This document shows, one piece after another, positions 6,786-30,183 of a stretch of DNA of 64,000 bases. Both the position numbers and the translations under genes were made by a program. Under the pieces are notes generated by a model. It made no database searches. It saw only the letters and a program-made list of their open reading frames with translations, and had not been told where the DNA came from. Positions within the stretch are counted from its first letter, which is position 1, and each line of letters begins with the position of its first letter. This DNA comes from an uncultured Acidobacteriota bacterium (GTDB lineage Bacteria > Acidobacteriota > UBA6911), in the NCBI GenBank assembly GCA_963809485.1, contig CAWEJX010000012.1, forward strand, positions 128,001 to 192,000, given 5' to 3'.

Positions 6786-8504
6786 ATGCGTTTCGGAAAA
6801 TTTCTGATATTGTGCTTCCTCGAATTGAGTCTATTTCCACTGCATGCTCAGGAACCCAAAGTTACTGTAATGAACCCGCTGGGAACTCCCCCTCCGATCC
6901 GGCTGGTTCCCATGGCGCCGCGACTCGATACGCTCGACGGCAAGACCGTGTATTTTGTCGATTCGCGCTATGTGGGAGGAGATATCTTCCTGAAGGAGAT
7001 GATGTCCTGGTTTTCCGTGAACATGCCCAAAGTTAAGCTTGAATTCAGGCAGAAGGCCGGCGCCTACGCGGAAAGCGATCCCCAGTTGTGGGACGAGATC
7101 CGGCAAAAAGGGGATGCTGTAATTATGGCGATCGGGCATTGAAGTACCTGCACGCCGGCGGTCGTCGGCCATTGTCTCGAGCTCGAGAAACTCGGCAAGC
7201 CCACTGCGCCTGTTGTTACGAACAGCTTTGTGGCGTTGGCAAGAGGCAATGCCCATAAGCGCGGCATGCCGGGAGAACGTTTCACCTTTGTTCCGCACCC
7301 TGTCTTCGGGAAGACGCCGCAGGAAATGCGGCGCGATATTGAAGGGAAGGATCCGGTCACGGGAAGACCGGTCATGCAGGAAATCGTGGAAGCCCTGACC
7401 AAGCCGCTGACTGCGGAAGAAAGGAAGGATGGATTCCTGCAGAGGCCGCCAAATCCCCGGTTCCTTCCCCCCGATACTGCGGACAACCTGCAGCGATATT
7501 TTCACGAACATGGAATGACGGACTATCTCCCGGTCATTCTTCCTACCGGGGAAAAGGTAGCCGCCATGCTCAAGGGAACCAGTCATGACCGCAACGAGGT
7601 GGTTGGAAAAATGGCGGGAGGCGCGTTCGACCCCTGGGAATACACGGTGGAACAGGTGGCCGTGAATGCCGTCATGGCCGGTGCGCGGCCGGAATACTTG
7701 CCGGTTATCCTCGCACTGGCATCTAGCGGGCAGGCATCGCTGTACAGTTCCACAAACTCATTCGCATATTCCGTGGTGGTCAACGGGACGATTCGCGACG
7801 AGATAAAAATGCACTACAGGGTCGGAGCGATGGGGCCGTTCAGCCAGGCGAACGCAACGATTGGAAGAGCATGGACTTTGATGTCGAGAAACCTGGCAAA
7901 CGGAGGCATCGTCGGAGAGACATACCTTGGGTCCACCGGGAACAATCTGAATTACAACAATCTCGTTGTCGCCGAGAATGAAGCGGACAGTCCGTGGAAT
8001 TCACTGAGTGTGCAATTAGGATACAAACCGGGGGAGAGCGTCATCAGCATCTTTACCGGTTTGGGAATGCAGCCGGGACAATTTGCGAAGGGGGGCGGCA
8101 TTTCGGTAAAGCCTCGGTATGACGAACAGTTTCTGAGCGTAATAAGCAATTTCACTACGCTGTTTGGAGCTTTGGTAGTCTGTGATCCCCTCATTGCCAA
8201 GGCTCTCAAGGAACAGGGCTACGATACAAAAGAAAAGCTGATTGACTGGCTTTATAAAAATGCCGTCCATACGGTGCGGGAATATAAGGACGCCAGTTTT
8301 GTGCTGACATTTGATCTTCCTCGAGCTCAGAAGGGCGTTGAGCCCTTCGCCTCGTGGTTCAAGCTGCCGGATGACGCAAAAATTCCAATCTTTATAAAGC
8401 CGTCGGATCTCTCGATTGTGGTGGCAGGCGGCCAGACGCAGGCCAGGTTCCAAGCGGGGAATCTACGCTATACGGCGAGTTTTTCTGTTGACAAATGGAG
8501 ATAA
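6786..8504 (+). CDS. Secreted UGSC-like selenoprotein 1 (572 aa), Sec at TGA 7140-7142
   Basis: ORFs 6786..7142 and 7230..8504 are in the same frame. Readthrough gives AIGH-U-STC-TPAVVGHCLELEKLGKP. C-terminal domain has TDYLPVILPT and AVNAVMAGARPEYLPV. Signal peptide ends LHA. Confidence 0.88.
7154..7169 (+). promoter_or_regulatory. Candidate bacterial SECIS hairpin
   Basis: GCCGGC-GGTC-GTCGGC; G-initiated loop starts 17 nt after the UGA. Confidence 0.65.
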
Positions 8505-8535
8505 GTGTCCTGAGGAGCTTTGTTCAGACGCATTC

Positions 8536-8850
8536 TCACGGCCAGGTCCATGGTTTGATTGGGGCCGCATTTCTGCCGGCTATGCGCCCGAATGCGCTCG
8601 CGTCCCAAACGTTGCCATCGGTGACGCTATAGGTTCTGCCGCAGATTGAACCTATAGCGCCGGCTAAGAACTGTCGTAGGACAGGGGTCAGATCAGGATT
8701 CAATACCTCGGATCTGGGGCAGAACGAGGCGGACCGCCGTGGGTGCAGACGCCACCCGGTCCCGGTGCTTTGGCAAAGGTGTAATAGGGCGGAGCGTTCC
8801 CCAGAAGCAGACTCGACGCCGGCCGTTTGTGTTCCCAAGGCATTGCTCCA
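8536..8850 (-). pseudogene. Decayed C-terminal fragment of an FAD flavoprotein paralog
   Basis: Across frames: AGVESASG, PPYY, CTHGGP, EVLNPD..AGAIGS..AFGRIAGRNAAPIKPW, colinear with the C-termini of intact paralogs. Confidence 0.75.
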
Positions 8851-9071
8851 GGCACAGCCCTATGGTTTGGCCGGGCAACGGCAGCCGGAGAAAAAATTCT
8901 ATGAAGCGGCCGTGAAGGTTTCTACAGCAAAGCTGCGGCAGCAACTGTTCACCGTTGGGAATTTTTCTTCCTTACATGCCCTCAGGAGAATTTGGGCAGT
9001 TTTCCGACTAGCCCTATGCTATCCTGCTCCCATCACACAAAAAGCAAATTACTATCTCCAGGAGGTCAGGT

Positions 9072-11087
9072 ATGAAAAGCAAAAGCAATTTGCTGGCGAT
9101 GATTTCACTGATCTTTGTGTTTCTTCTGGGTCTGGCGAGCTTCGCTACTGGCGTCGCGCCTGCAAATCATGGAAATAAGGTAAAGCCGGGACAGTTTGTC
9201 ATCGGAGATCCAACTCTTATTTGCCTTGGATTTGAATGGAACATTGAGGGCGATGATAACCGTAATGCGGCGGTTGCGGTCCAATACCGCAAAAAAGCGA
9301 CGACCGCCTGGAAAGAAGGGTTGCCCCTTCTGCGCCTCCAAAATGAGGAAGCGGGCGGGAGCTTTATTCGCGATTTTGTAGGTCCCAACATGTTTGCGGG
9401 AAGCATACTGGATTTGGAACCTGATACGGAGTATGAGTGCAAATTTCAGATGTCCGATCCGGACGGCGTGGATGGAACCAAGCAAAAAATGGTCACGGTG
9501 CGAACACGTCCGGAACCGAAACCTTTCGCGGGCGGACGGATCCTGCACGCGTACCCCATGAATTACAAAGGCGCCAAAGATAAGCAGGTCTTTTCGGGCC
9601 TGGTATCGGCTTACGGGGCGGCTGAACCCGGCGATACTATCCTGATACATGCCGGCGTCTATCAGAGTGATCGCGCCAGCTATAATTCCCGAATGAGAAG
9701 CGGAGTCGGATCAGACGGATTTGGAACGACCAGGCTTACCAAGAGCGGCACGGCTGAGAAGCCTATTGTGATAAAGGGCGCAGGGGATGGCGAGGTCATT
9801 TTCGACGGTGGCGGCTGTTCTATTCTCTTCGATGTGATGGGAGCAGATTATTTGTACTTCGAGGGTCTCACCTTCCGCAATGCCGATGTGGCTATTTACA
9901 CGGGTGTAAAGAACGTGATTGGCAGCAGCGGATTGACAGTCCGAAAATGCCGCTTTGAGAACGTATGCATGGCCATCTGGGGAACATACCAGGCATCAAA
10001 AAATTATTACATCGCTGACAACGTGCTCATCGGCCGATTCAATCCGAAGGCACTGATGGGGGAGTTTGGGGGTGACTTTATTCCGTATAAAACACTGCCC
10101 GGCTGGCCCATGAAAATAAACGGCCCCAATGGCTCCTACTACGCGGTCACGGTGGCGGGGCAGGGGCACGTCCTGTGCTACAACCGTGTTGAGAACTTCT
10201 GGGATGGGACGTGCGTCGATCAGGGAGGAAGCCTTTCGTTCCCGGGAAAGCCGGGGGGGCCGCATGCCAATATCGACTTCTACAATAACTACTATTGCAA
10301 TATTTACGACAATCCTGTCGAAGTCGACACCGGCACTCACAACATCCGCTTTATGCGCAACCTTTGCCTCAATAGCGGACATGCCGCCTTGAGCGCACAG
10401 CCTATTTATGGCGGACCGGCGTACTTTATACGGAATATCGTTTACCATGCCCCGGACCGGGGAGCTATAAAGATGTATGACCGGCCGGCAGGCGTGATTA
10501 TGTATCACAACACATACTGTGCCGAAGTTTACGCTGGGCAACCCTCCGCCAATTTAAACGGCCGCGAAGGCGCTTCGAACTTGCATTTCCGTAACAACCT
10601 CATGCTGGGAGAAAGCCCCATTTCAATGAGGAATTACCGTACCAACAGGGAATTTGGCGGTATTTACTTTATGGATACTTACACTTCCTATACAACCTCT
10701 GACTATAACGGGTTCCGTCCCAATGAAGGGTATGAGGCCCAATTCATGTGGCTTTCCCCTGCCGGTGGCGCAGTGCGCGACTATAAAAATCCCAGGGAGG
10801 TGCATTCCTTTAAAACTCTCCAGGAGCTCTGCAAGACACTAGGGCAGGAGTGCCATGGGATAATGGTAGACTACGATATATTTGAGAACGTGAAAAAGGC
10901 GGATTTAAAGGAATTTTCAAGGGTATATACACGCGATGAACTGGATTTCCGGCTTAAGCCGAATGCCGTCGCTGTTGATGCGGGGTGCGTCCTTCCCGGC
11001 GTTAACGATGGCTTTGCCGGGAAGGCTCCTGATCTTGGGGCATTGGAGGTTGGGCTGCCCCTGCCAATATGGGGACCACGGCCGTAA
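9072..11087 (+). CDS. Secreted right-handed parallel beta-helix protein with N-terminal FN3-like domain
   Basis: Signal peptide; PTLICLGFEW..GDDNRNA, PGDTILIHAGVY, SGTAEKPIVIKGAG; C-terminal DFRL..AVDAG..APDLGALE. Confidence 0.88.
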   Translation: MKSKSNLLAMISLIFVFLLGLASFATGVAPANHGNKVKPGQFVIGDPTLICLGFEWNIEGDDNRNAAVAVQYRKKATTAWKEGLPLLRLQNEEAGGSFIRDFVGPNMFAGSILDLEPDTEYECKFQMSDPDGVDGTKQKMVTVRTRPEPKPFAGGRILHAYPMNYKGAKDKQVFSGLVSAYGAAEPGDTILIHAGVYQSDRASYNSRMRSGVGSDGFGTTRLTKSGTAEKPIVIKGAGDGEVIFDGGGCSILFDVMGADYLYFEGLTFRNADVAIYTGVKNVIGSSGLTVRKCRFENVCMAIWGTYQASKNYYIADNVLIGRFNPKALMGEFGGDFIPYKTLPGWPMKINGPNGSYYAVTVAGQGHVLCYNRVENFWDGTCVDQGGSLSFPGKPGGPHANIDFYNNYYCNIYDNPVEVDTGTHNIRFMRNLCLNSGHAALSAQPIYGGPAYFIRNIVYHAPDRGAIKMYDRPAGVIMYHNTYCAEVYAGQPSANLNGREGASNLHFRNNLMLGESPISMRNYRTNREFGGIYFMDTYTSYTTSDYNGFRPNEGYEAQFMWLSPAGGAVRDYKNPREVHSFKTLQELCKTLGQECHGIMVDYDIFENVKKADLKEFSRVYTRDELDFRLKPNAVAVDAGCVLPGVNDGFAGKAPDLGALEVGLPLPIWGPRP

Positions 11088-11505: not shown

Positions 11506-11676
11506 ATGAGAGACGTATGCACGATCGAGGAGATCCAGGAGCCTTTCCATAAGCAGCATCGGACTGATGGCCTTCCGGTCATCCCACCCAAAAAGGAAGC
11601 CGTGGCGGAGATGTTGAAGGGAACGGGCTTCACGGCTAAGACAGACGTCAGAAACACAGCCCGGCTCAAAAAGTGA
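11506..11676 (+). pseudogene. Internal fragment of a fourth UGSC-like gene
   Basis: IEEIQEPFHKQHRTDGLPVIPPKKEAVAEMLKGT matches FLDNQMSDGLPLVPPTREAVAKMLKGT of the intact copies. Confidence 0.75.
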
Positions 11677-11720
11677 CCGATTTGCTGAGGAACCGGTCTT
11701 GGCGTCTGAGCGGTACGCCG

Positions 11721-12987
11721 TCAATATCTCCCGTATTCTTTTGTGAATTCAATCATGGCCTTCAAGTTCTCCGGCTTTACCTCATCCGTGGAACTCCTTG
11801 GCCCCAGAATGTATCCGCCGCCCTTGCCCACCGTGTCAATGAGGTTCTTGCAGTAGTCTTTGACTTCCTGAACCGACCCCATCTGCAGAAGTGAAGACGG
11901 CACATTCCCTTCTATGCACACATGATCTTTAAGAATCTCTTTCGCCTTGACTATGTCGGTGCGGTCGAACCGGGCCAGTATCTTGCCCTTGGGAAACTCG
12001 AGCAGATACTCCAAACGCGACGTGAATGTCCCCTCAAAAAAAATGCAGGGCGTTGCTCCACGATCGACGAGAGTCATGACAAGCTTCTTGAATGTCGGCC
12101 AGTAAAAAGTCTGGAACTGCTTCATCGACATGAAGTCGTCGGACCCCCTCGTATTGGTCATGAAAATCCTGATGTTGCCGAATTCATTAGGCTTCGGTAG
12201 CGGTCTTGCCAGCGTTTTCTCCAGCAGGAATTCACACATCGCGATGAGTTTGTGCGGCTTTCGATACATGTCCAGCATCGTGCCCTTCATGCCGCGAATA
12301 CTGTTGGAGATCACATCAAATGGCGGCATTGCCGCCCCCTGAAACAACTGGGGGATGCCGTAGTCAAGCAACATCTGGTTGAACTCGTCGATTTTGTGCT
12401 GCCACCTCCTGAATTCCCGCCCTGCCTTCTGGAGGTTTTCGATCATGGATTCGAACTTGGGTTCGGTAAAGATCATCGCCAGCGTTTGCGCGGCCATAGG
12501 CTCGATCCAACTCATGCTGTTCGAGCTCCGGAAGCATCGACAGCCCTTCCAGGCTTTCATACGTCCTCGGCAGATGATGCCGTATCATGAAATCGGCCGG
12601 CTTGTCTAAAAAGCAGTCGTGTTCGTCATCCCGCAAGCTTTCAATTTCAATGGCCTGGTGCCCATGGTTGGGAGCAACGCCGTAGCCGGGCCATTTCCGA
12701 AACCTTGGATTCAGGTATTCCATTGCGGTTCCGGGAGAGAAAGGCTGGGTGAATGACATGTCCGGCTGATAGTCGCCAAGTGTTTTTCGGTATGCCGCCA
12801 GCCAGGCGTCAGGATCATAATACGCAGCCGAGCATGGTATGCCGGCATAGCGGGCGACGAAGTAGCCAAGCGAACAGATTACCGGGACCCTGTCCGTAGG
12901 TCTGAGACGGATGGCGTTCGTGACCCGCAGTTCTCTTTCACGGCGCAATTCCTCGGAAGTTTTTCCATGTTCAAGTGTTGTTGTCAT
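11721..12987 (-). CDS. Uroporphyrinogen decarboxylase/MtaA-CmuA superfamily protein; one frameshift near 12522
   Basis: N-terminal PTDRVPV and RKWPG in 12364..12987; C-terminal IRGMKG..DMYRKP, FYWPT, CIEGNVP, GGGYIL in 11721..12560; the frames join on removing one base. Confidence 0.82.
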
Positions 12988-13139: not shown

Positions 13140-14105
13140 CTAAGCGCAGGCCAGTATCGCTTTCTTTACCATCCCCGCGGCGACCTGAATCTTCCACTTG
13201 TTCAGCGCCAGAGCCCTCGCTTCCGTGACCGCAGCCGTGCCGGCCGCCTGCGCGCTCGCCACATCGATCGTCTTGCCCGCTATGGATTCCTCCGCTTTGG
13301 TCGCCCGGTAGGGTTTGTTATATACCGCATTGAGACATATCCGGGCCGTTCCGCCCCCAATGGCCGCCGCACAATTCACGATGGGAAAGTCTATCGACGA
13401 CCTCAGGGCAAACTTTACAAAGGCGCTTTTGACGCCGGAAGCCGGCGCGGGAACCTGAATCTCCTTTACGATTTCATCGTTCTCCAGCACCGTGGAACGA
13501 GGGATCTTTACCGCCCAGAACTCCTCGGCGTTGAGGGTTCTCTTCGACGTCACGATCCTGGCATTTAAAGCGACCAGCGCCGGCGCCGTGTCGCTTGGAT
13601 TCACAGCCATGCAGGCTGAAACACCCCCGAATATCGAGTGATATCGATTCTCCCCGGCCATGGCAAAGCACGCTTTGCCGCCTTTCCTGATACAGAAAAA
13701 CCTGTTGTCGTGAAGCCGGAAATACCAGCAGCGATTGAGCTGGCAGACGTTGCCGCCGATCGTCCCCATTTCCCGGATGTGCGGCGAAGCGGTCTTATGG
13801 GCCGCCTCCGACAGCGCCGCCCATTTGCTTTTGACCACACTGCTCTTCGCAATGTCCTCGAGCCGGGCCAATGCGCCAATCCGCAGCATGCCCTTTTCTT
13901 CTTTGATGTAATCCAGGCTTGGCGTAATGGTCTTGAGGTTTACCAGAATCTGAGGATACATGGCATCCGGGAGTACCTCAAACCTCATGGTTCCCACAAG
14001 ATCGGTGCCCCCGGCAAGTGCCCAGGCATTGGCTGCACGCAGGGCCGACACCGCCTCTTCTACCGTCTTGGCATTGACACGGGTGAATTTCTTTACGGTC
14101 TTCAT
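13140..14105 (-). CDS. FAD-binding medium subunit of Mo hydroxylase with [4Fe-4S] insertion (PaoB/HcrB-like)
   Basis: AGGTDL, IREMGTIGGN; four-Cys insert RCWYFR..FFC..KAC..SAC; PSDTAPAL. Confidence 0.93.
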   Translation of the reverse strand: MKTVKKFTRVNAKTVEEAVSALRAANAWALAGGTDLVGTMRFEVLPDAMYPQILVNLKTITPSLDYIKEEKGMLRIGALARLEDIAKSSVVKSKWAALSEAAHKTASPHIREMGTIGGNVCQLNRCWYFRLHDNRFFCIRKGGKACFAMAGENRYHSIFGGVSACMAVNPSDTAPALVALNARIVTSKRTLNAEEFWAVKIPRSTVLENDEIVKEIQVPAPASGVKSAFVKFALRSSIDFPIVNCAAAIGGGTARICLNAVYNKPYRATKAEESIAGKTIDVASAQAAGTAAVTEARALALNKWKIQVAAGMVKKAILACA

Positions 14106-14119: not shown

Positions 14120-16468
14120 CTATGCTTTGCCCAATGCTTTAAGGATTTTGTCCGGGGTGACCGGTTCCGAGTCCACATATTTGCCTATGGCGTTGTATAC
14201 GGCCGTAGGCATGATCGTGTGGTTGCAGGCGCCGCCGTCTTCCCCAACGCCGCAACTCCCATAAGGAGCATAACCCAGACCAGTTTCCACAATGGCGCAC
14301 TCAATGGACGCGACGTCATTCATCACATTCACCGGGTAACCTATAAGGTTGTCGTTGAGTGCGAGTCCTGTTTTTGGGTCGAAATATAGCGTCTCTTTGG
14401 TGGACCTACTGAGCCCCATATACGCTCCGCCATATTGCTGGCCGTTAAACGCGTCCGGGTTTATTACTTTGCCGCCGTCATTCACGCTCACCTGTTTTAG
14501 TATCTCGATCCCTCCTGTGTCGGGATCCACTTCTATTTCCACGAAGTGGGCTTGCCGGACCATGCTGTACTCTTCCTGAACGCCGCCGCGCCCCGTGTGA
14601 CCGGGAGTATAGTCCCATACAAACAAATAATAAGTCAGGGCCGCTGCGATTTGCGCCAGTGTCTTTTTGTTTTCCGGGTTTGCCTTTTCAAAAATTACGC
14701 TGTCCTTGATGTCCAATTCTTCAGGCTTTTTATTGGGAAAGAACGCAGGCCTTGAAGGCATCAGATTTCCCAGTGTTCTGCGCAGGGGGGTTGGCTGAGT
14801 TACCATTTCAAGGATCAGCTGCTTCATTTTCCGCGAGGCTCTTCCTGTTGTGAGACTACTTCCGCTCAGCCCCTGGGAACCGCCCCCCGGCTCCGTTACA
14901 AAACCGTCGCGCCCCTCGAATGGCCTTATCCGGATATCTTTAAAGCTGACTCCCATTTCATCTGCCGCAATCTGGGAGAAGGCGGTCTGTCCGGCCCAGC
15001 CTCCATCACATTGCGTAGCCAGAAGGTCAACCGTTCCATCGGCGTTCACTCTTATGCCCATGCCGGCAGTCCCCACTGTATGCGCCCACTCGACGGTCGA
15101 GACATAGCCCATCCCGTGATATTTCCCATTGGGCAGAATTTTGGTTCCGGGCAAGTGCCACTTTTTGTCCCACTCCATAATTTTCTTGCCCAATTCATTC
15201 ACCTCTTTGCTGCTGTCCCTGGCAAGGTCAAACCCCTGTGGTTTTTTGATGTGCTCGTTCACGTATGCCCATTCGTGGCCTTCGACACCATCATTTATCT
15301 GGGCAATCTTGCTTGGATCCACCCCCAATTCGCCGGCTACGTGCTCCCATACCTGGGTCGTCACTCTGACTGTCGAGCAACCATGCTTGAAGCACTGGTC
15401 GAACGGTTTTGTATAGGCCGCAGAATCGCACGTAATGAGTATGTTGGGAATATTTGTGCCTTTGTGTATTTTATTGGTACTGAGTTCTGTAACCCAGGCT
15501 TCGTAGCATCTCAGTTGCATGGCCGTGATGCGGCCATCCAGTTTGAATCCTACTTTAAAGTAGTAACGGGACCGGGCGTCCTCGTCACCGCCGACGAAGT
15601 GACTTTCATCGTCCAGAACCTTCACAGGACAACCCGTTCGCCTGGAAGCTATCACCGCTACCTCAGCTGTATGATGGGACGCGATAAGACTCGAACCTCC
15701 AAAAAACGCTCCGTTGTAGGGCAGATACAGATGGATTTTGTTGAGAGGTGAGTATGGTCGCAGACCCGTCATCATAGTTAACCAGTTCTGACCGTGATGC
15801 CAGACATCCAGATAATCTCCCCTACTTTCGGCCACACCGACATGTGCCTCTACTCCGGCCCACACGTCGTGCTCCGTAATCGCTTTCCACTCGATTATTT
15901 TGTCGGCTTCGGCAAAGCCTTTTTCAATATCCCCAAACTTATATTCGGGACCAAATCTGGGCCTGCGGTTGGACTTGGGATCCACATCCGGGCGCATTAT
16001 CGGAGCGCCCGGCTTCAACGCTTCCTCGACGTCCAGGATGATCGGCAGCTCTTCCATCTCGAGTTCTATCAGTCGCAATGCCCGGTCGACGATCGCCTCG
16101 CTTTCGCCTACCACGACAGCTCCCACCATCCCCTCATACCAGTGGTTCGTGTCGGAGACAAGAGCTTGGCTTACAAGCTTAGGCCAGATTATCGTGGGAT
16201 CATCATATCGGAGTACCGCCCTTACACCTTGAAGAGCCTCGGCTTTGCTGGTATCCAGGCGTTTGATCTTGGCGTGAGCGTGGGGGGATCTAAGAAACTT
16301 CGCATAGAGCATCCCCGGACGGTATATGTCCCTGGTATACACTGCACTTCCGCTCGCTTTTTCGTAACCATCAACACGGTATATGCGGCGTTTTCCAATC
16401 ATTGTAGCGTTTTCCGGTACCGGCCAAAGCCACGGATATAGTGGTTCTCCCTCTTTTAGACCGTACAT
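14120..16468 (-). CDS. Xanthine dehydrogenase family molybdopterin-binding large subunit, clade 1
   Basis: PGMLYAKFLRSPHAHA, FFGG, GGGSQG, EIEVDPDTG, INP..GQQYGG, GVGE, AVYNAIG. Confidence 0.93.
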   Translation of the reverse strand: MYGLKEGEPLYPWLWPVPENATMIGKRRIYRVDGYEKASGSAVYTRDIYRPGMLYAKFLRSPHAHAKIKRLDTSKAEALQGVRAVLRYDDPTIIWPKLVSQALVSDTNHWYEGMVGAVVVGESEAIVDRALRLIELEMEELPIILDVEEALKPGAPIMRPDVDPKSNRRPRFGPEYKFGDIEKGFAEADKIIEWKAITEHDVWAGVEAHVGVAESRGDYLDVWHHGQNWLTMMTGLRPYSPLNKIHLYLPYNGAFFGGSSLIASHHTAEVAVIASRRTGCPVKVLDDESHFVGGDEDARSRYYFKVGFKLDGRITAMQLRCYEAWVTELSTNKIHKGTNIPNILITCDSAAYTKPFDQCFKHGCSTVRVTTQVWEHVAGELGVDPSKIAQINDGVEGHEWAYVNEHIKKPQGFDLARDSSKEVNELGKKIMEWDKKWHLPGTKILPNGKYHGMGYVSTVEWAHTVGTAGMGIRVNADGTVDLLATQCDGGWAGQTAFSQIAADEMGVSFKDIRIRPFEGRDGFVTEPGGGSQGLSGSSLTTGRASRKMKQLILEMVTQPTPLRRTLGNLMPSRPAFFPNKKPEELDIKDSVIFEKANPENKKTLAQIAAALTYYLFVWDYTPGHTGRGGVQEEYSMVRQAHFVEIEVDPDTGGIEILKQVSVNDGGKVINPDAFNGQQYGGAYMGLSRSTKETLYFDPKTGLALNDNLIGYPVNVMNDVASIECAIVETGLGYAPYGSCGVGEDGGACNHTIMPTAVYNAIGKYVDSEPVTPDKILKALGKA

Positions 16469-19138: not shown

Positions 19139-19199
19139 GCTCGAAATCTCCTTAATCGTCACTTACGATATATGAAAATCTGCAGATAAAGCAATCCGC

Positions 19200-20147: not shown

Positions 20148-22141
20148 ATGAAGAATAAAAAGAGCATCGTCATTTCAGGTGTCCTTATATTTCTCCTGGG
20201 CTTATCCTCCTTTGTCGCCGGTACGGTACCCGAAACATACGGGAACAAAGTAAAGGCGGGAGAGTTTGTCGTCGAGCCTCCAACGCTCATTTGCCTGGGG
20301 TTTGAATGGCATATCGACGGCGATGATAACCGTAATGCCACCGTGGATGTCCATTATCGTAAAAAGGGAGATACGGCCTGGAAACAGGCACAGCCGCTTT
20401 TGCGCCTCCAACGTGAGCAGGCAGGCGGGGACGCAACAATTCAAGATTATGTGATTCCAAACATGTTTGCCGGAAGCATATTGGATCTGGAACCTGATAC
20501 CGAGTATGAATGCAAGTTTCAGCATGAACGATCCGGACGGCGTAATTGGAACCAGGCAGAAAATCGTGTCTGTACGCACACGTCCCGAACCGAAACCTTT
20601 TGCGGGCGGAAAGACCTTGCACGTGTATCCTGCCGAGTATAAAGGTTCCAAAGAAAAGCCGGCCTTTGTAGGATTGAAATCGGCGTATGAAGAGGCTGAG
20701 CCAGGCGATATTATCCTGGTGCATGCCGGCCTTTACCAAAGCGACCGCACCAAATATCTGGACTATCTGAGAAAGGGGGTCGGATCAGACGTATTTGGAA
20801 CATCCAGGCTTACGAAGAGCGGAACAGCCGAAAAGCCCATTGCGATCAAGGGTGCAGGGGATGGCGAGGCCATTTTCGATGGCAATGCCTGCTCTCTCTT
20901 TTTCGATGTCATGGGCGCGAATTATCTATACTTCGAGGGGCTTACCTTCCGCAACGCCGATGTCGCTTTCCTCACGGGTTTGAAGAACGTGGCTGGCTGC
21001 AGCGGATTGACAATTAAGAAATGCCGTTTTGAGAATGTGGCCGAGGCCATCAGGGGAACCTATCAAGGGTCAAAAAACTATTACATTGCCGATAACGTGA
21101 TCATCGGCCGGAACAACCCAACAAGGCTGCTTGGCATGATCAGCAGAGAGGTTCGATATGACACTCAACCCGGCTTCCCCCCCTCGGTAGGCGGCCCGAA
21201 CGGATCCAACAATGCAATCACCGTCGCAGGGCAGGGCCACGTTGTATGTTACAACTATGTTGCAAATTTCTTCGACGGAATAGACACGAATCAATCATCC
21301 GGTGCACCGGCGGAAGGACAGGTATTGTTGCCGCCTATCGCGATCGACTTCTACAACAATTATATTTCCAATATGTCCGACAATTGTTTCGAAACGGATT
21401 GCTCTACGCACAACGTCCGCGTGATGCGCAACATGTGCATCAACAACGCCCATGGCACCTTGAGCTCACAGCCCGTCTATGGTGGACCGGTATACTGGAT
21501 ACGCAATATCGTTTACCATGCTCCCGATCGAGGAGCTCTAAAGATGTATGCAAGACCGGCAGGTGTGATCTTCTATCACAATACGTTCTGTGCCGAAGCC
21601 ATTGTTGGGCAACCCTCTGGATTGGGAGCTTCGAACATACACTTCCGCAACAACCTCATTCTTGGAGAGAATCCCGAATCCATGGTTAACTATCTTCCCA
21701 AGGATTTCAGGGGAATTTTCCTTATGGACACCTATACTTCCTATTCCACTGCCGATTATGACGGATTTCGTCCAAATGAGGGGCACGACATGCAGTTCGC
21801 CTGGAACTCACCGGCCGGCGGTGCACGGATCGATTACAAAAATCCACGGGAGGTGCATGTATTTAAAACTCTTAAAGAGCTTTGCGCAGCCACGGGCCAG
21901 GAATGTCATGGGATATTAGTGGATTACGATATATTCCAGAATGTAAAAAAAGCGGATATGGCCAACTTCAGCAAAATTTACGATGCTAAAGACATGGATT
22001 TTCGCCTTAAGCCCGGATTCTGTAGCGGTTGACGCCGGATGCATCCTCCCCAACATCAACGACGGTTTTACCGGAAAAGCTCCGGACCTCGGGGCATTGG
22101 AAGTCGGGCAGCCCGTGCCTATCTATGGGCCGCGGCCGTGA
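20148..22141 (+). CDS. Secreted beta-helix protein paralog; single-base frameshifts near 20521 and 22012
   Basis: Pieces 20088..20642 and 20467..22032 plus a terminal VAVDAGCILPNINDGFTGKAPDLGALEVGQPVPIYGPRP segment align end to end with paralogs. Confidence 0.83.
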
Positions 22142-22221
22142 TGTTCTGAACCAACAACTGTGAAAGATTGATCCGAATCCATTGGAAGGCTTCCGCGAAA
22201 GCAAATAGAGAGGAGGAATCT

Positions 22222-23799
22222 ATGAAAGCCAAAAAACAAAAACGGAATCTCACAAGGAGAGATTTTCTGACAACGGCAGCCGTCAGTGCAGGCGCAACCG
22301 CCCTGGTTGGGGTCGGTCCGGAAGAAGCCGGAGCCGTCCAACAAAGCGATGTCCGAAAATGGGACTACGAGGCGGGGATCGTTATCCTGGGCATGGGCGG
22401 AGCGGGCCTTACCTCAGCTATAACGGCTCACGATCAGGGAGCCGACGTGCTCATGCTCGAGAAGGCGTCGGAAGCTCACGCCGGAGGCAACACCAGGGTA
22501 TCCATGCAGGGGGTTTGGTGTCCCCCAAACCTGGAGGAAGCCCTTACCTATCACAGAGCGCTCAATGGCCGATATCCGGTTCCCGATGAAGTGTTTCATT
22601 CCTATCATGAATACACTACAAAGAGCTTCGAATGGCTGAAAAAAATCGCCGACGGCAAGGTCAACCAGCAACTCAGCACCGGCAAGGGAGAGTACCCCGA
22701 GTTCCCTGGAGCAATGAGCAGCTACATCTGTTCGTCCAAAGAAGGATATGGATACCAGAGGCTTTGGAAGGTGCTCAAGGGCAACGTCGACAAGAGAAAA
22801 ATAAAGATCCTGTATGAAACGCCCGGAGTTGATCTGGTCCAGGATTCCAGGACCCGGGAAATCCGCGGTGTAGTCGCGCAGAGGCAGGGCAAAAAGATCT
22901 ATGTCAAAGCCAAAAAGGCTGTGATCCTGTGCACCGGCGGGTTCGAAAACAATCAGGAGATGATCCGTGATTACCTTCTGCTGCCCTGCGGATATCCGCT
23001 TGGCAGCCCATACAACACCGGAGACGGGATAAGGATGAGCCAAGCCGTAGGCGCCGATCTGTGGCACATGGCTAACATGTGTGGGGTTTCACTCAGCTTT
23101 AGAGCCCCGGGTAACGGCTGGGCCTTTGGCGCCGGATTTTCCATGCCCTCCGGCGGATATATCTTTGTTGCCAGTGACGCGACGAGGTTTGTGAACGAAA
23201 ACCAACCCTCCAGGCACGGCAAGGTGGCCTACCACGGCACCTATGTTCATCTTCCCCTGCCTTTGCCCATACACGCAGTCTTTGATGAAAATGGGAGAAA
23301 GGGCGGCCCGCTTTATCAGACTGAGGAATACTGGTGTTGGTATGCCGTGATTGAAAAGTATAAGTGGAGCGCGGACAGCAGCGCTGAATTGGAAAAGGGC
23401 TGGATCCTTAAGGGCGATACCATAAGGGAGTTGGCCGCAAAAATGGGCAAGGACCCGGATACTTTGGAAAAGACTGTAGCCAAATGGAATCAGTCTTGCG
23501 CGGCAGGGAGCGATTCAGAATTCGGCCGGCCGGCTAAAAGAATGGCTCCCATCAAAAATCCGCCCTACTATGCCATGGAACTGGTGCCCGCCTTCACCAA
23601 TACATTGGGAGGCCCCCGGCACAATCAGCATGCTCAGGTGTTGGACACAAACCGGAAGCCAATCCCGAGACTGTACTCTGCCGGAGAACTGGGTTCCATA
23701 TTCAGTTATCACTACCAGGGAGCCGGAAACTTTGGGGAGTGTGTGGCTTTCGGACGAATCGCCGGTGAACGCGCTTCTGCTGAGAAGCCATGGTCTTAG
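22222..23799 (+). CDS. Tat-exported FAD-binding oxidoreductase paralog
   Basis: AGGAGG RBS; TRRDFL; highly similar to 2953..4533. Confidence 0.92.
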   Translation: MKAKKQKRNLTRRDFLTTAAVSAGATALVGVGPEEAGAVQQSDVRKWDYEAGIVILGMGGAGLTSAITAHDQGADVLMLEKASEAHAGGNTRVSMQGVWCPPNLEEALTYHRALNGRYPVPDEVFHSYHEYTTKSFEWLKKIADGKVNQQLSTGKGEYPEFPGAMSSYICSSKEGYGYQRLWKVLKGNVDKRKIKILYETPGVDLVQDSRTREIRGVVAQRQGKKIYVKAKKAVILCTGGFENNQEMIRDYLLLPCGYPLGSPYNTGDGIRMSQAVGADLWHMANMCGVSLSFRAPGNGWAFGAGFSMPSGGYIFVASDATRFVNENQPSRHGKVAYHGTYVHLPLPLPIHAVFDENGRKGGPLYQTEEYWCWYAVIEKYKWSADSSAELEKGWILKGDTIRELAAKMGKDPDTLEKTVAKWNQSCAAGSDSEFGRPAKRMAPIKNPPYYAMELVPAFTNTLGGPRHNQHAQVLDTNRKPIPRLYSAGELGSIFSYHYQGAGNFGECVAFGRIAGERASAEKPWS

Positions 23800-23888
23800 C
23801 CTTGCCGCGCTCTGTGGCGCTTAAGTGCTATTTACCGGCAGAATGACCCTGCGGTATTGGAAGCGAAGAATCTTTTTGGGAGAACGAA

Positions 23889-26295
23889 ATGGCAGAAAAC
23901 TATCAGCCATGGACTTGGCAAATACCCGAATCCGACGAGAGTATTCAAAAGCAACATGATCCCCCGCCAGGATGCCTATGAGAGGGTGAGCGGCCATGCC
24001 GTTTACACAAGAGACGTTTATCTTCCCGGAATGCTTTACGCGAAGATCCTCACGTCGCCTTACGCTCATGCAAAAATTGTAAGCATGGATACAAGCAGAG
24101 CCGAGGCGCTCATCGGGGTACGGGATATACTCAAATACGAAGACCCGGACGTTGCGAATGAAAATAATACCGGGACCAGTCCAAGCAATGTTCTTGCTCT
24201 TCCCGGCATCAGTGACTTTTACAACCATCCCATGGGAGTTGCGGTGGTCGCTGACACTGAGGAACTGTGCGACCGGGCGCTGCGGCTGATCAAGATGGAA
24301 TGGGAGGAGCGGCCGTTCATCCTGGATATGGAGGAATCACTGAAACCGGATGCTCCAAAGATTTGGAGCGAGGTAGTGCGCGTACGGGAAACGGCAAAGG
24401 GACCTAACGGCCTCGGAACTCGTGAGGAGGAAATCGGTGACGTGCAGAAGGGTTTCGCCGAGGCAGACAAAATCGTGGAGTACACCATTAAAAGGGCGGC
24501 GAATTCGCCGGCGGGTGTCGAGGCCATGGCTTGTGTGGCCCAATGGAGGGGAGAATTCCTGGATATTTGGGTGCATCACCAGAATAACCCGCAATCGAGT
24601 CTCAGTTCTTCCCCCGGCGGGAGGTCTGGCGCTGTTAGAGGAAGGAAGCCGAATCCTGGCTTTACGCACTGGTCCAAGATAACAGTCACATTACCCTACC
24701 AGGGCTCCTGGTTCGGGGGGCTGTCCTGGATCGGTTATTCCGATTTGTTTGTCCGCCTCGCCGTCATACTGGCGAAGAGGGCGGCCGGGAAACCGGTGAA
24801 GCTGCTGTATGACGAAAGTCAGTTCTATCTCAACGGCGAAGAAACCGGCAGCTATAGATGCAAAGTGGGCGCCAAAAAGGATGGCACCATCACGGCCTGC
24901 CATTGGCACATGATCGGGACGAGGAATCCCGGCGTTGATAAGACTCCTGAGTGCACGGGTATACCCAATATCCGAGGCACCATGGAGGCGGCGTGCACCA
25001 ATATGGGCCACATCAGTTGTTTCCGGGATGGTACTTCAGCAAGCATCGGCCACCAGGTTATGTTTGATCGGGTGGCTGCTGAGTTCGGCCTCGATCCGAC
25101 CGAGGTGGCGCTGAAGAACGATGGTTGCCACGGACACTACTGGGATTGGGTCACGCAATACCAGAAAGACAATGGTTTCCCCCAAAGGTGGAGCCTTAAA
25201 GAGGTCCTTGAAAAGGGCAAGAAGGCCATTGACTGGGACCGGAAATGGCACGCGCCCGGAACCAAAAGGCTTGCCAATGGGAAGATGCACGGTATGGGAT
25301 TCATGTCCATTAATGAATGGGCATGCAATGCAGGCAGCAGGCTGGCGTGTTTGATGCTTCGCGACGGCAAAGTCGCCATCGTAGGGATGCGATGCGATCC
25401 GGGAATTGACTCGATATCCGGTTTCCGCCAGTGCGTGGCCGCGGCGATGGGACTGAAATATGAAGATACGGTTGTTCACCAACATCGATCCGACAACAGC
25501 ATGTACCGCTTTTCCAATCCAGGCGGTTCCCAGGGCACGATCACGACCGTTCCTCAATTGATAATTGCCGCCAGGGAGCTAAAACAAAGGATCCTGCAAG
25601 CTGCCATAACGCCTCGGCCCGGCTTCATGATGCGTCCTGCGCAGCCCGCTATGTTCCCGGGCAAAAAGACCGAGGACCTCGATATCAAAGACAGCATGGT
25701 ATTCGAGAAAGCAAATCCAAGTAACAAGAAGCCGGTGATCGAGGTGATGGGCCCCTCATCCGACAGCGACAATTCGGGCATCGTTCATCCCGTTGCCGGC
25801 ACGGTATCGGGATTGACTTCAGACGGGAAGCCGGATCCGACGAACTACATCATGAGCCGGCAAGCCCACTTCATAGAGGTAGAAGTGGATACCGAAACCG
25901 GGCAGGTTGAGATCACCAATGCGGTCTGCGTCAACGACATTGGCCATTGCTTTAATCCTGCAGGCGCCATGGGACAACAGTATGGCGGCGCCGTCATGGC
26001 CTTTGGCCGAAGCGCAACCGAAGAGAAGGTGTTCTGCCCGAACTCCGGAGTGGGGCTTAACTATGATCATATGAACTACCACATTGGAACCATGAATGAC
26101 TTTGCGCCCGTCCAATGCATCCTAAACGAGAGTCATCTGGGATATTCTGCGTACGGCGCGTACGGGATTGGGGAAAACATCGGCGCCAGCCTTTCCGGAA
26201 TCACTTCTTCCGCCATATACAACGCAATAGGCAAATGGGTCCTTGACTTTCCAACGACTCCGGAAAAAGTGCTCAAAGCCCTGGGCAAAATATAA
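23889..26295 (+). CDS. Xanthine dehydrogenase family large subunit, clade 2; frameshift near 23945
   Basis: ATG 23889 gives MAENYQPWTWQIPESDESI, matching paralog MADNQPWTWEIPESDESI, then shifts into the long frame; WFGG, PGGSQG, EVEVDTETG, GIGE. Confidence 0.88.
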
Positions 26296-26363
26296 TAGAA
26301 GAAGCTCTGGGAAAACCTGGAAGAAACTTGTGACCGCGGGGCGAGGTTTCGCGACAGAAACTA

Positions 26364-26601
26364 GTCAGGCACCTCCGGCAAAGCCGGAGGTTTGAAAGAT
26401 TGGGACCGATCAAAGCGGTTGGAGGAATTACGCTGGTCTTGAACGCTGACTTACGCGGGCAAAAGCCGATGAGGCGCTCGCCGACCCTCGCCGAACAAAT
26501 CGACGTTTGTCAGCGCTTTTGTCAGCGTATCTCAGCGTTTCAAAATACGGAGCTGTCAAACTCTATGAGTCCCCCGGCAGAGCCGTGAGTTTTACAATAG
26601 A
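26364..26601 (-). mobile_element. Non-autonomous IS200/IS605-like element copy C
   Basis: Both ends present; the flanking TAAT contains the TAA stop of the adjacent selenoprotein gene. Confidence 0.8.
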
Positions 26602-26602
26602 A

Positions 26603-28264
26603 TTATCTCCCGGCCTTGGTCAGGGTCGCGCCCGTTATCTTTTTCGTAACATGGGCACCTTCTCCGTAATCCCATATCATGGAATACCCCGGCACACCGC
26701 CGGTCACGGCGATGGAAATATTCTTCTCCGGTACTCCGGTTTTTTGGGCAAACCAAGCCTGCAAATCCTTTCTGTTGGTAAAGGATGTTTTCAGCCCTTG
26801 GGCGGCTTCCGGATGAAACCAAAGCCAATAACTGTTGTAAATAGCACCACTGGTATGAGTCATTTCTTTAACCATACCATCCAAAATTGACTGCTCTGTC
26901 CAGGTATCAACTGCTCCACCCCCAACCTTTTGGCCCGAAGCTCCAATGTAGGAGCCGACCTTGGTCACCGTCACAGCGCTGTCTCCCTTCGCAAAACCCT
27001 GGCTCATACTATACGGCTCCCACGGGTTCATCTCCTCATTTTCGGCAAAGGTGTAAAAGGTATGCGCCGACGGCCGGCCGGTCAGGGCCATGTCGTTCAC
27101 TACCGGCCAAGTGTGGCCGATATTGCGTGTTGCCAATCGAACGGATCGCCCAATCGTACTATTGGCTCGCCAGCAATCGCCCAAAAAACCAATCCCGGAA
27201 TTCATGTTGATTTCCTTAGCTATGGGACCGTTCACCATAATGATGAGAGTAAAACCACCCGAAGAACCCATCATGTGCCAGAATCCCATGCTCCACTGTC
27301 CTCCCGCCGAAATAGCCTCCATGGCCGCGATGATCACTGGAAGGTACTCCGGCTTCGCCCCTGCCATCACCGCATTGATAGCAATCTTTTCAATAGTGGC
27401 GATGCCAAATTTCATGGGAATTTTTCCTATTACTTCGCTGGGAGAACGGCTCGTTCCTTTGAGCATCTTGGCAACAGCCTCTCTGGTAGGGGGTACCAGA
27501 GGCAGTCCATCGCTCATCTGGTTATCGAGAAACGACTGGTTGAATTTTTCCTCAGCGTCCGCATAATTGGCGCCAGTAATGCGGATAGGGGGGTAGTCGA
27601 CTGCGGTTTTTTGCTGAGGCTTGGCCTCCTCTTGTGTTAGGGGGGTCGTCAGAGCCTTAACAATGGGATCCAAAGCGGCTTCAGCAAGCGGTCTTACCTC
27701 TTTTACAGTTCCCCGATTCCGGTACCATTTATCGGAAGGTATTGTTACTATCCGGATGTTGGGCATCGACCAATCAGCAGCAGCTGATTTGGCATCTGCA
27801 AGGAATTGCGAGCTGACCAGAAATACTCCAGGCGCTCCATACTTTTCCATCTGCATAGTGCGGCGGGAACCCCACCACGTGCAGGTCCCTCAGTCTCCTA
27901 TGGCAAAAATAAAAGCATCACACTCCTTTGCTATCTTTTGAAACTCTTCTTCCCTTGGATCTGCTGTTGATCCCGCCTTATATTGCGTTAAAATAGTTGC
28001 GGTTGGGTATTTCTGCTTCAGCAGTTCTTCCAGTGCGGTAATTAGATTTCTCACACCAGATTTGCCGTTATTCAGCAAAGCAACCTTCTTACCGGCCAGA
28101 TCAGGAATACGAGGCGTCAGTCCTATGGTTTTCGCCGGCTCAATCACGCCCATGGGGTTGAGCAACTCCAAAGAGACCTTTTCGCTCGCCGGTCTGGCCG
28201 AACGCCCGCCCAGAAATAAACCGGCGGCAAGCAGCAAAGAAACCGACAGCAGTTTATTTTTCAT
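26603..28264 (-). CDS. Secreted UGSC-like selenoprotein 2 (553 aa), Sec at TGA 27890-27892
   Basis: In-frame join of 27890..28333 and 26603..27856 gives AIGD-U-GTC-TWWGSRRTMQMEKYGAPGV; GGAG RBS before MKNKLL signal peptide. Confidence 0.9.
27851..27884 (-). promoter_or_regulatory. Candidate SECIS hairpin
   Basis: CTGCA-c-GTGGTGGG-GTT-CCCGCCGC-acta-TGCAG; loop 18-19 nt after the UGA. Confidence 0.75.
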
Positions 28265-28434
28265 TCTCTGATCTCCCAATTTTGTTAAGGTTGGATTCCA
28301 ATTCTCCAAATTATTTATTCGGGATAGGTGCACACTTAGGCTAGCGCAGGCAGGACATCAGCCGGCTTTGGATGCTTCACCGCAGCTCCAGCCAACTCGC
28401 AGCGCCGTGGCCTTATAGTCGCCCTTAATCGTCG

Positions 28435-28492
28435 GCCTGACAGATCGCGCCTCGCCGTTCCATTCCGGGACAAAGAGCGGCGAGGCCGCGAT
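28435..28492. repeat. Stem-loop repeat, copy 1
   Basis: GCCTGACA-ATCGCGCCTCGCCG..CGGCGAGGCCG, shared with 37206..37266. Confidence 0.6.
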
Positions 28493-28527
28493 TGAGTGTC
28501 CCGCTATCGGCACATCTATGCTCGAAA

Positions 28528-30183
28528 TTATCGCCCGGCTTTAGTCATGGTTGCGCCCGTGATCTTTTTTGTGACATGGGCAACCGTCTCGTAGCTCCAC
28601 AACAGGGAATAACCCGGCACACCGCCGGCCACGGTAATGGAAAAATTCTTTTCCGGTATGCCGGTCTTTTGAGCAAACCAACCCTGTACATCCTTGCTGG
28701 TTTTATAGCCCATTTTTGCTAAACCTTGAGCACATTCCGGATGAAACCATACCAGATAGCTTCCTCTGCCTTTGCCGATCGATTTAACCATACCGTCCAA
28801 AATCCCCTGCTCCGTCCAGATAGCGACCGCTCCACCTCCAAACATATTGGCTCCGGATCCACCATAGGAGCCGACCTTGGTCACCGTCACTGTACTGTCC
28901 CCCTTGGCAAAACCCTGGCTTACCTGATAGGGGTCCCAGGGGCTCATCTCTTCATTTTCGGCAAAGGTGTAAAAGGTATGCGGCGACGTCCGCCCGGTCA
29001 GGGCCATGTCGTTCTCCGCCGGCCACGTGTGGCCGATATTGCGCGTCGCCAATCGAACGGACCGTCCAATGGTATTGTTGGCACGCCAGCAATCGCCCAG
29101 GTAACCAATCCCGGAATTCATGTTGATTTCCTTGGCTATAGGACCGTTCACCTGAATGGCAAGAGTAAAGGCACCCGCCGATCCCATCATGTGCCAGAAT
29201 CCCATCCCGGTATACCCTGGCGCCACAAATGCCTCCATCGCCGCGATTACCACCGGAAGGTACTCCGGCTTTGCTCCGGCCATCACCGCGTTGATCGCAA
29301 TCTTTTCAATAGTGGCCGTGCCGGATTTCATGGGGATTTTGCCTATCACTTCGCCCGGAGAACGACTCGTCCCTTTGAGCATCCGGGCAACGGCTTCCCT
29401 GGTCGGGGGCACCAGAGGCAATCCATCGCCCATCTTGTTTTCCAGAAACGACGCGTTGAACTTTTCCACCGCGTCCTCATAACTATCGCCCGTAATGCGA
29501 ACGGGCGGGTATTCGACTGCGGATCTTGTCTGAGGCTTGGCCTCCTCAGCCGTAAGAGGCTTCGTCAGTGCGTCCACAATGGGATTAAAAGCGTCTTCAA
29601 CGAGGGGTCTTAACTCTTGTACCGTTCCCCGAAGCCTGTACCACTTTTCGGAAGGAAATGTTACCATCCGCATGTTGGGCATCAACCAATCAACAGCGGC
29701 TGATTTTGCGTCCTTCAGGAAATTCGAGCTGACCAGAAGTACTCCAGGCGCTCCATACTTTTCCATCTGCATTGTGCGGCGGGCACCCCACCACGTGCAG
29801 GTCCCTCAGTCTCCCATCGCATATACAAAGGCATCGCATCCCTTCGCGATCGACTGAAAATGTTCTTCCTGTGCCTGTGCCTGTATTCCCGGGTTAAATC
29901 CTCGCTGAATAGTTACGCCCGGATACTTCTGCTTCAGCATTTCTTCCAGTATGTCGAATAGCTGGGGCACACCCGGTTTGATGTTATGCACCAGAGCAAT
30001 CTTCTTACCAGAATAATCCGAAAGACGAGGCCTCAGTGCTAAATATGGCTCAGGCTCAATCATGCCCATGGGATTGAGCAGCTCCAAAGTAACCTTTTCG
30101 TTCGCCGGTTTGGCCGTCGAAAATCCGCAAAAAACCAAAGCGGCAGCTAGCAATAAAGAAATCGCTACCAGTTTATTTTTCAT
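28528..30183 (-). CDS. Secreted UGSC-like selenoprotein 3 (551 aa), Sec at TGA 29806-29808
   Basis: In-frame join gives AMGD-U-GTC-TWWGARRTMQMEK; tandem paralog of 26603..28264. Confidence 0.9.
29767..29800 (-). promoter_or_regulatory. Candidate SECIS hairpin
   Basis: CTGCA-c-GTGGTGGG-GTG-CCCGCCGC-acaa-TGCAG; differs from copy 2 only at unpaired positions. Confidence 0.75.

Follow-up and report, generated by a model that had tools for sequence, protein, structure and literature searches.

In aquatic metagenomes, few predicted selenoproteins outnumber those of the UGSC family (Pfam PF24696; NCBIfam NF041046), which have no known function. According to the study that surveyed the Global Ocean Sampling (GOS) data, they comprise 255 sequences with selenocysteine (Sec, U) and 21 homologs with cysteine (Cys), share the motif UxxC and have a 'likely Trx-like fold', that is, one like that of thioredoxin (Zhang & Gladyshev 2008, PMC2398784). 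The family is also listed in reviews of 2022 and 2026, which describe the functions of such selenoproteins as largely uncharacterized, and of 17 papers returned by a whole-word literature search for 'UGSC', none is a functional study of the family, judging by titles and abstract openings. Here, three genes that very probably encode selenoproteins of this family, named paralogs A, B and C, are described from an uncultured Acidobacteriota bacterium (UBA6911; assembly GCA_963809485.1, contig CAWEJX010000012.1, positions 128,001-192,000). This stretch of 64,000 nucleotides (nt) is referred to as the window. The genes had been noticed in an earlier interpretation of its letters, called here the sequence-only reading, which had also stated that UGSC selenoproteins are without known function.

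The architecture of the three genes is not new, and they are a correct but ordinary instance of a known fusion family. A 'UGSC/Unknown_1' fusion is mentioned in PMC2398784, and a GOS read in its sequence supplement has VGDUGSC followed by DGLPIVPPT...AINAVMAGA, which is the architecture of A, B and C. Judging from this supplementary sequence, 'Unknown_1' would correspond to the C-terminal conserved domain (hereafter C-domain) of the three proteins. The genes had been called hidden, which is right as far as their splitting under translation table 11 is concerned; the same fusion of UGSC and C-domain, written with U, was already in the 2008 supplement.

Like the rest of the UGSC family, the paralogs have an N-terminal domain scoring above the Pfam cut-off, a UxxC motif, and Sec alternating with Cys at one position. 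They differ in reading USTC or UGTC rather than UGSC, in carrying predicted signal peptides, and in reaching 72-90 bits with the NCBIfam equivalog model, below its cut-off of 125, in a comparison of a profile of 147 positions with fusions of 551-572 amino acids (aa). The term signal peptide is absent from the 2022 and 2026 reviews, and the UGSC passages of PMC2398784 make no mention of it.

Selenoprotein B of the glycine, sarcosine, betaine and D-proline reductases (GrdB, GrdF, GrdH and PrdB) resembles the paralogs in its UxxC-type Sec site and in a weak profile similarity around the Sec residue. The Grd and Prd proteins are cytoplasmic, whereas the UGSC fusions include forms that appear to be exported, have another architecture, fall far below the selenoprotein-B cut-offs and have no pyruvoyl partner subunit or GrdA in the window or among recurrent neighbours. 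A different likeness is offered by thioredoxin-fold proteins of the ResA/StoA/AhpC-TSA type, ResA and StoA themselves being extracytoplasmic: in three relatives (P0261, P0251 and P0264), a CxxC domain of this type takes the place of the UGSC domain before the C-domain. The UGSC domain itself, however, gave no thioredoxin-fold match in a structural search with Foldseek, where only generic alpha/beta folds were returned (best TM score ≤0.20).

Probable Sec decoding at an in-frame UGA

Under table 11, each of the three loci is called as two open reading frames (ORFs): 6786-7142 and 7230-8504 for A (+ strand), 27890-28333 and 26603-27856 for B (- strand), and 29806-30198 and 28528-29772 for C (- strand). 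Reading through the TGA yields one continuous frame per paralog, each with exactly one TGA. The genes, their UGA codons and the Shine-Dalgarno sequences preceding them are the following:

6786..8504, + strand: paralog A, predicted selenoprotein gene, 572 aa plus stop, U119, motif GHUSTC
26603..28264, - strand: paralog B, predicted selenoprotein gene, 553 aa plus stop from the ATG at 28264, Sec as residue 125, motif GDUGTC
28528..30183, - strand: paralog C, predicted selenoprotein gene, 551 aa plus stop, U126, motif GDUGTC
7140..7142, + strand: UGA (Sec) codon of A
27890..27892, - strand: UGA (Sec) codon of B
29806..29808, - strand: UGA (Sec) codon of C
6776..6779, + strand: Shine-Dalgarno GAGG of A, 6 nt upstream of the ATG, read from the sequence
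28272..28277, - strand: Shine-Dalgarno GGGAGA of B, 7 nt upstream of the ATG
30191..30196, - strand: Shine-Dalgarno GGGAGA of C, 7 nt upstream of the ATG

The three TGAs share one alignment column. The sequence-only reading had placed them at 7140, 27890 and 29806, at the same aligned position of three paralogs of about 550-570 aa with U-x-x-C contexts (HUSTC, DUGTC and DUGTC), and its coordinates and motifs proved accurate. Paralogs B and C are 72% identical, while A shares ~30% identity with either of them. A promoter and terminator scan of 26200-30700 gave results at chance level.

Relatives were collected by scanning species-representative genomes, with matches ranked on paralog A; 552 were confirmed among 610 matched stretches, and the best 80 loci were kept. 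Most are metagenome-assembled genomes (MAGs) of Acidobacteriota, 50-61% identical to paralog A, and the others belong to Chloroflexota, Alpha-, Beta- and Gammaproteobacteria, Thermodesulfobacteriota, Latescibacterota, Actinomycetes and Eremiobacterota. The sequence-only reading had looked to Cys homologs for support, and to TAA or TAG at the TGA position as counter-evidence. The column holds TGA in 72 of the 80 independent loci and Cys in the other 8, and TAA, TAG or any other codon in none, a distribution well outside chance. Cys is also found there in P0042 and P0043, two members of a 17-row protein alignment. Copies of the B/C type are represented at the DNA level by three incidental GDUGSC copies with TGA (L023, L028 and L063). 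Within the window, TGA is the stop codon of 11 of 34 ORFs, which argues that the code has not been globally reassigned.

The flanks of the UGA are conserved on both sides across phyla, with a mean column identity of 54% in an 82-row alignment, and no variation is seen at the motif positions G94 and C96 of the 82 UGSC domains, and next to none at C99. Indirect support for recoding comes from the best 120 database homologs of paralog C: 24 are full length and 96 are shorter, all of the latter starting at or after residue 137 (U being residue 126).

Bacterial selenocysteine insertion sequence (SECIS) elements are stem-loops that follow closely behind the UGA and have a G among the first nucleotides of their apical loop. 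A hairpin of this geometry follows the UGA in all three paralogs, its apical loop (GGUC in A, GUU in B and GUG in C) starting with G and beginning 17-19 nt past the UGA:

7154..7169, + strand: SECIS-like hairpin of A, GCCGGC-GGUC-GUCGGC, stem from 11 nt and loop from 17 nt after the UGA, 6 of 6 pairs intact
27851..27884, - strand: SECIS-like hairpin of B, CUGCA.GUGGUGGG-GUU-CCCGCCGC....UGCAG, -17.5 kcal/mol, loop from 19 nt after the UGA, 8 of 8 core pairs
29767..29800, - strand: SECIS-like hairpin of C, as in B with the loop GUG, -17.5 kcal/mol

In both B and C, the core GUGGUGGG-GU(U/G)-CCCGCCGC is enclosed by a longer stem. When a stretch of 72 nt was folded for B, the structure of minimum energy was one other than this hairpin.

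The pairing is conserved among relatives. In an ungapped 57-nt alignment of the TGA-bearing sequences (n=75), the majority hairpin is paired in 70.3% of cells, against 24-60% when the partners are slid, and 43 double-sided changes were counted; pair 15-30, for instance, is CG in 21 sequences, GC in 16 and AU in 5. None of 500 shuffles came up to the observed percentage paired, covariation score or number of double-sided cells. Full pairing, in any of three subfamily registers, is seen in 50 of the 75 TGA sequences and in none of the 8 Cys sequences, a contrast that is partly circular, the registers having been read from the same sequences; 63 of the 75 are at least 83% paired, and at five slid starts no sequence (0/75) is fully paired.

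The claim that these are genuine Sec recoding sites is upheld by the alternation of Sec and Cys in one column, by a SECIS-like hairpin specific to the TGA copies and by protein-coding sequence that is conserved both before and after the codon. The three genes are very probably selenoprotein genes in which UGA is decoded as Sec, the insertion itself being what we infer from the sequences. As far as these data indicate, they are intact, mis-split genes and new members of a known but functionally orphan family.

Domain architecture and predicted export

In each of the three proteins, a predicted signal peptide is followed by a UGSC domain of ~170 aa, a linker with the pattern '...LTxPLTxEE...' and the C-domain of ~340 aa:

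6867..7334, + strand: UGSC domain of A (residues 28-183), PF24696, E 4e-27, 95.9 bits against a cut-off of 25
27647..28165, - strand: UGSC domain of B (residues 36-208), PF24696, E 9.9e-30, 104.4 bits against a cut-off of 25
29566..30081, - strand: UGSC domain of C (residues 35-206), PF24696, E 6.3e-25, 88.7 bits against a cut-off of 25
7479..8501, + strand: C-terminal conserved domain of A, ~340 aa, no Pfam or NCBIfam model
26606..27550, - strand: C-terminal conserved domain of B
28531..29469, - strand: C-terminal conserved domain of C
6786..6851, + strand: predicted Sec-pathway signal peptide of A, ~22 aa (MRFGK-FLILCFLELSLFPL-HAQ), heuristic, its end set by analogy with the relatives L002 and L003, in which '...AQ' precedes 'DAKITVLNP'

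The PF24696 match crosses the TGA in all three proteins, and its scores of 88.7-104.4 bits bear out the UGSC-type label given by the sequence-only reading. An AlphaFold2 (AF2) model of paralog C, for which an alignment of 106 rows was used, reached a predicted local distance difference test score (pLDDT) of 92.8 and a predicted template modelling score (pTM) of 0.91, and it places Sec126 between a predicted strand (118-124) and a predicted helix (127-142). A previous model of paralog A from the 17-row alignment had a poor pLDDT of 65.6 and was set aside. When the model of C was compared with the PDB by Foldseek, generic alpha/beta matches (EF-Tu G domain, flavodoxin-like) were obtained to the N-domain only, the best with a TM score of 0.20, and none of the matches to the UGSC domain was a thioredoxin fold. 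The profile of the 17-row alignment found a single, chance-level match among PDB sequences (E 0.99). The closest clusters in the ESM Atlas have either no name or an automatic one, 'Thiol-disulfide oxidoreductase family protein', and a search limited to named clusters without UGSC gave no match.

The C-domain is characterized by the motifs DGLPxxPPT, AINAVMAGA(K/R)PEYLPV, GWRANxTIGR and HTFYTFAENE. Its residues A302, G347, E409 and G424 are invariant, and D253, R374 and N369 come close to this (numbering as for Sec126). Searched alone, it matches 4087 clusters at 50% identity (E ≤1e-3), in which it occurs as a stand-alone protein (~340-378 aa), in tandem (~700-750 aa), behind a UGSC domain or fused to surface modules. 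Among 26 scanned proteins, fn3 domains are found in 12, and SLH, dockerin, FIVAR/Flg_new and rhodanese (P0175) in single cases; these partners suggest that many members of the family are extracytoplasmic. A set of 106 diverse members contains 63 with a UGSC domain, in some of them only in part because the proteins are post-TGA fragments, and three (the P0261, P0251 and P0264 mentioned above) with an AhpC-TSA/Redoxin CxxC domain of the thioredoxin fold in its place, with the motif 'HDCATCS' in P0261. Such a replacement implies an equivalent role for the two domains. Permissive Pfam and NCBIfam scans of the same 106 members did not assign the C-domain consistently to any one family.

At the Sec column, the 17-row alignment has Cys in two rows, Leu in one, Thr in two and Asn in nine, in addition to the three window rows. 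The apparent Leu is that of P0039, a full-length metagenome relative of B and C, which reads GDLGTC and keeps the rest of the motif intact. Of 25 stand-alone proteins, 23 have the Cys of 'NAVMAGC', where A, B and C have Ala. The idea that this 'MAGC' Cys is a catalytic residue of the C-domain and that Sec replaces it was considered and rejected: fusions are found with CxxC and MAGC, with CxxC and MAGA, and with neither.

A further trace of the C-domain lies in the window, outside any intact gene:

11521..11625, + strand: remnant of a fourth copy, 35 aa (C-domain DGLPxxPP...MLKGT region), tblastn E 1e-6 to 3e-5

It is 50-54% identical to A, B and C and adjoins an ORF of the URO-D family (11721-12560, - strand) that matches only positions 141-346 of the 346 of its Pfam profile. 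The remnant beside this partial ORF may be the scar of a rearrangement.

Regarding localization, the N-termini of A, B and C have two K/R residues followed by a hydrophobic run, with maxima of 2.45, 2.52 and 3.01 on the Kyte-Doolittle scale (10-aa windows), and no twin arginine; in C, a candidate cleavage region is formed by S-T-A ahead of KP. By simple criteria (n-region, h-region, small residues at the cleavage site, no RR), and by homology to relatives with clearer signals, the three proteins are predicted to carry Sec-pathway signal peptides, as the sequence-only reading had claimed, and they are likely to be located in the periplasm.

The N-termini in the 80 loci are diverse. In 24 of them an RR-x-hydrophobic pattern is found, judged a convincing twin-arginine translocation (Tat) signal in 22 ('MNRRKLLSLLG...'), mainly in Acidobacteriota; about 14 carry signals of the Sec-pathway type like those of A, B and C, about 40 begin directly with the domain, and one (L018) is cut at a contig end. 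The catalytic subunit of formate dehydrogenase-N is a further example of an exported selenoprotein, the binding proteins of the Sao system have been described as such, and a multiheme cytochrome c selenoprotein turned up among literature on periplasmic selenoproteins. All of these share with A, B and C a Sec residue and a signal peptide or extracytoplasmic site, but they are unrelated in sequence and chemistry, and the Sec of the paralogs belongs to a UxxC motif rather than to a metal cofactor. Export and paralog expansion had been regarded as unusual for such proteins. This appears overstated: the former has precedents in the Sao system and the family itself comes in Sec-pathway, Tat and signal-less forms, while multi-copy clusters occur in 9 of the 80 loci. 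Both are common within the UGSC-fusion family or have precedents elsewhere.

Gene neighbourhoods in the relatives and in the window

The 1129 ORFs of the 80 loci were clustered to find recurrent neighbours. The largest 'neighbour' cluster was discarded, being an antisense shadow ORF of the UGSC-fusion gene itself. A thioredoxin-reductase-like (TrxR-like) flavoprotein (Pyr_redox_2, ~310 aa, CA[ST/L]CD) is encoded in 9 loci, and in 7 of them (L027, L035, L051, L052, L062, L071 and L079; ~8960-10000, + strand) its gene, here with the motif CA[ST]CD, is found immediately upstream of a signal-less copy, on the same strand. This protein is a candidate for a dedicated reductase of the UGSC-fusion proteins.

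Exported copies have other neighbours. Beta-propeller dehydrogenases of the pyrroloquinoline quinone (PQQ) type adjoin Tat-type copies in 9 loci, and a PQQ_2 beta-propeller gene (4811-6136) precedes paralog A in the window. Directly downstream of exported copies in 10 loci (L012, L013, L016, L020, L021, L023, L028, L063, L065 and L069) is a secreted family of ~190-250 aa without a Pfam model, most members of which have signal-peptide-like N-termini and which ends in '...GG..WF.LY'. Three such pairs are found in L020 and none in the window.

Some additional families recur near the fusion genes. A secreted family of ~340 aa, without a Pfam model and with a 'CDR.CL' start, occurs in 10 sources including the window (1880-2854, - strand), L003, L009, L019, L030, L031, L047 and others, with four copies flanking the gene of L030. 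Upstream of signal-less copies in L042, L057, L066, L067 and L076 there is a pyridoxal-phosphate enzyme of ~400 aa, with matches to aminotransferase families and a weak one to the Pfam SelA family (E 5e-10); a true SelA would be expected to score much higher, and the protein is probably a SelA-like enzyme of other function.

In three of the 9 loci with multi-copy clusters (L023, L028 and L063), a copy of the GHUSTC type is accompanied by one of the GDUGSC type, as in the window, and L015 has two Cys copies and one Sec copy side by side. L078, labelled as a Klebsiella pneumoniae MAG, contains a GLUSTC-type gene with TctC-type transporter neighbours. This type is otherwise found mainly in Alpha- and Gammaproteobacteria, and in a few MAGs of Burkholderiales, Actinomycetes and Eremiobacterota, and the contig of L078 may be mis-binned.

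The window itself is an island rich in paralogs. It encodes four large subunits of molybdenum (Mo)-cofactor enzymes of the xanthine-dehydrogenase type (14120-16468, - strand; 23857-26295, + strand; 30659-33007, - strand; 45105-47693, + strand), accompanied by FAD subunits (13140-14105, - strand; 47641-48666, + strand) and a 2Fe-2S subunit (16484-17146, - strand). One of these Mo-enzyme genes is directly followed, on the same strand, by paralogs C and B. Five FAD_binding_2 flavoproteins, at least one of them (22168-23799, + strand) with a twin-arginine-like N-terminus, and three GntR regulators are also present. Interleaved with the Mo-enzyme and flavoprotein genes are those of four paralogous proteins of ~520-670 aa without a Pfam match (9072-11087, + strand; 17186-19162, - strand; 20467-22032, + strand; 40653-42674, - strand); two of these have signal-peptide-like N-termini and long conserved stretches in common.

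Mechanism, alternatives and meaning for the family

In the mechanism proposed here, the UGA would be read as Sec by SelB and tRNA-Sec, directed by the short hairpin of the bacterial SECIS type just downstream, and the preprotein, still unfolded, would reach the periplasm by way of the Sec translocon. There, the U-x-x-C pair would cycle between the selenol/thiol and selenenylsulfide states and act, much like a thioredoxin built into the protein, as the redox module for the chemistry of the C-domain. This explanation as a whole, from Sec decoding to export and the pairing of redox module and C-domain, is considered probable. The redox function of the UxxC is favoured with less assurance, and the role of the domain as redox partner, as well as the direction of electron flow, are what we infer. 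This redox reading is based on the TrxR-like gene adjoining the cytoplasmic relatives, the exchange of the UGSC domain for a thioredoxin fold, and the predicted position of Sec between strand and helix.

Several results weigh against this explanation. In the 64-kb window, neither selA, selB, selD or a tRNA-Sec gene nor a reductant for a periplasmic UxxC was identified; a tRNA scan of 60 related loci also returned no tRNA-Sec, a result that is uninformative. The Rfam scan of the whole window gave no match, the full 72-nt folds are no more stable than those of shuffled sequences (z -0.35 to +0.5), and there is the circularity of the register count noted above. The prediction of export is based on simple sequence features. 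With regard to function, many relatives have N, T, L or S in the column of the Sec and yet an intact C-domain, indicating that the UxxC is not universally needed; the nine N rows of the 17-row alignment read NGMG and have lost the +3 Cys as well, and stand-alone C-domains without a redox domain are common. No solved structure resembling the C-domain was found by Foldseek or by the sequence profile against the PDB, and no neighbour is conserved family-wide, the best neighbour families reaching at most 10 of the 80 loci.

In one alternative, the TGAs are true stops, and the loci either encode two products each, a short secreted peptide from the N-terminal part and a C-terminal protein of its own, or are decaying pseudogenes. 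Table-11 calling gives exactly these pieces, and the 96 shorter products among the best 120 database homologs have the same form. This is nevertheless hardly credible, since the single Pfam match and the AF2 model both span the TGA, so that a stop there would halve one folded domain, and since the downstream pieces start within that domain, 34-90 nt past the TGA, with GTG in A and ATG in B and C. It would also leave the restriction of the column to TGA or Cys in the 80 loci, the covarying hairpin behind TGA copies only, and the conservation of both flanks across phyla without explanation.

The sequence-only reading had instead suggested, as a possibility, a GrdB/PrdB-like selenol nucleophile. 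In such a reductase, the selenol would attack a substrate held by the C-domain, and the resulting selenoether would be resolved by the +3 Cys. The resemblance noted in that reading does recur as a weak profile similarity over the Sec site and the shared UxxC: among the 82 UGSC domains compared with selenoprotein-B models, PrdB was matched by 29, GrdB by 22, GrdF by 19, GrdH by 10 and the general selenoprotein-B model by 7 (best E 0.001-0.007), and residues 82-140 of the domain stretch of paralog A align to positions 333-388 of the 431 of the GrdB profile, covering its Sec. Membership, however, does not follow. The GrdB hidden Markov model gives paralog A 10.5 bits against a cut-off of 602.2, the GRDB Pfam model has no match in A, B or C at E up to 0.1, and neither the 31 window ORFs scanned with Pfam nor the neighbours that recur in the related loci include a GrdE/PrdA-type pyruvoyl proprotein or GrdA. 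Moreover, the C-domain stays intact in relatives that have other residues at the Sec column, and a thioredoxin fold in place of UGSC suits an electron carrier better than a substrate nucleophile. A reductase of this kind is therefore judged unlikely. Less likely still is a periplasmic site at which the UxxC would bind or handle metals or metalloids (Hg, As, Cu, Se or S species) rather than relay electrons. For exported selenoproteins of the Sao system, a metal-binding site formed by the Cys/Sec residues has been suggested, one relative (P0175) has a rhodanese domain, and the window is rich in Mo-hydroxylase genes; yet no metal-resistance or transport genes lie beside A, B and C or recur near their relatives, and the TrxR-like adjacency and the thioredoxin-fold exchange point to thiol-disulfide chemistry.

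Besides the redox module favoured for the three paralogs, a broader picture of the C-domain and its interchangeable redox partners can be drawn, tentatively and as a means of generating hypotheses. The C-domain might define a very large, unnamed enzyme family for extracytoplasmic or surface redox reactions, in which the electron module is interchangeable (UGSC with Sec, UGSC with Cys, or a thioredoxin fold). Paralogs A, B and C would be periplasmic, selenol-dependent members, and the UGSC domain a distant offshoot of GrdB/PrdB.

Standard annotation pipelines would report the three genes as six ORFs, and the same truncation affects most of their database relatives, as in the 96 of the best 120 mentioned above. 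Several handles on the function of the UGSC fusions are offered by the family: its Sec-pathway, Tat and cytoplasmic forms, the TrxR-like neighbour of the cytoplasmic ones, the exchange for a thioredoxin fold, the fusions to surface modules and a confident AF2 model. If the C-domain is indeed a redox enzyme family with UGSC as its electron module, the orphan UGSC selenoproteins would be tied to concrete enzymology.

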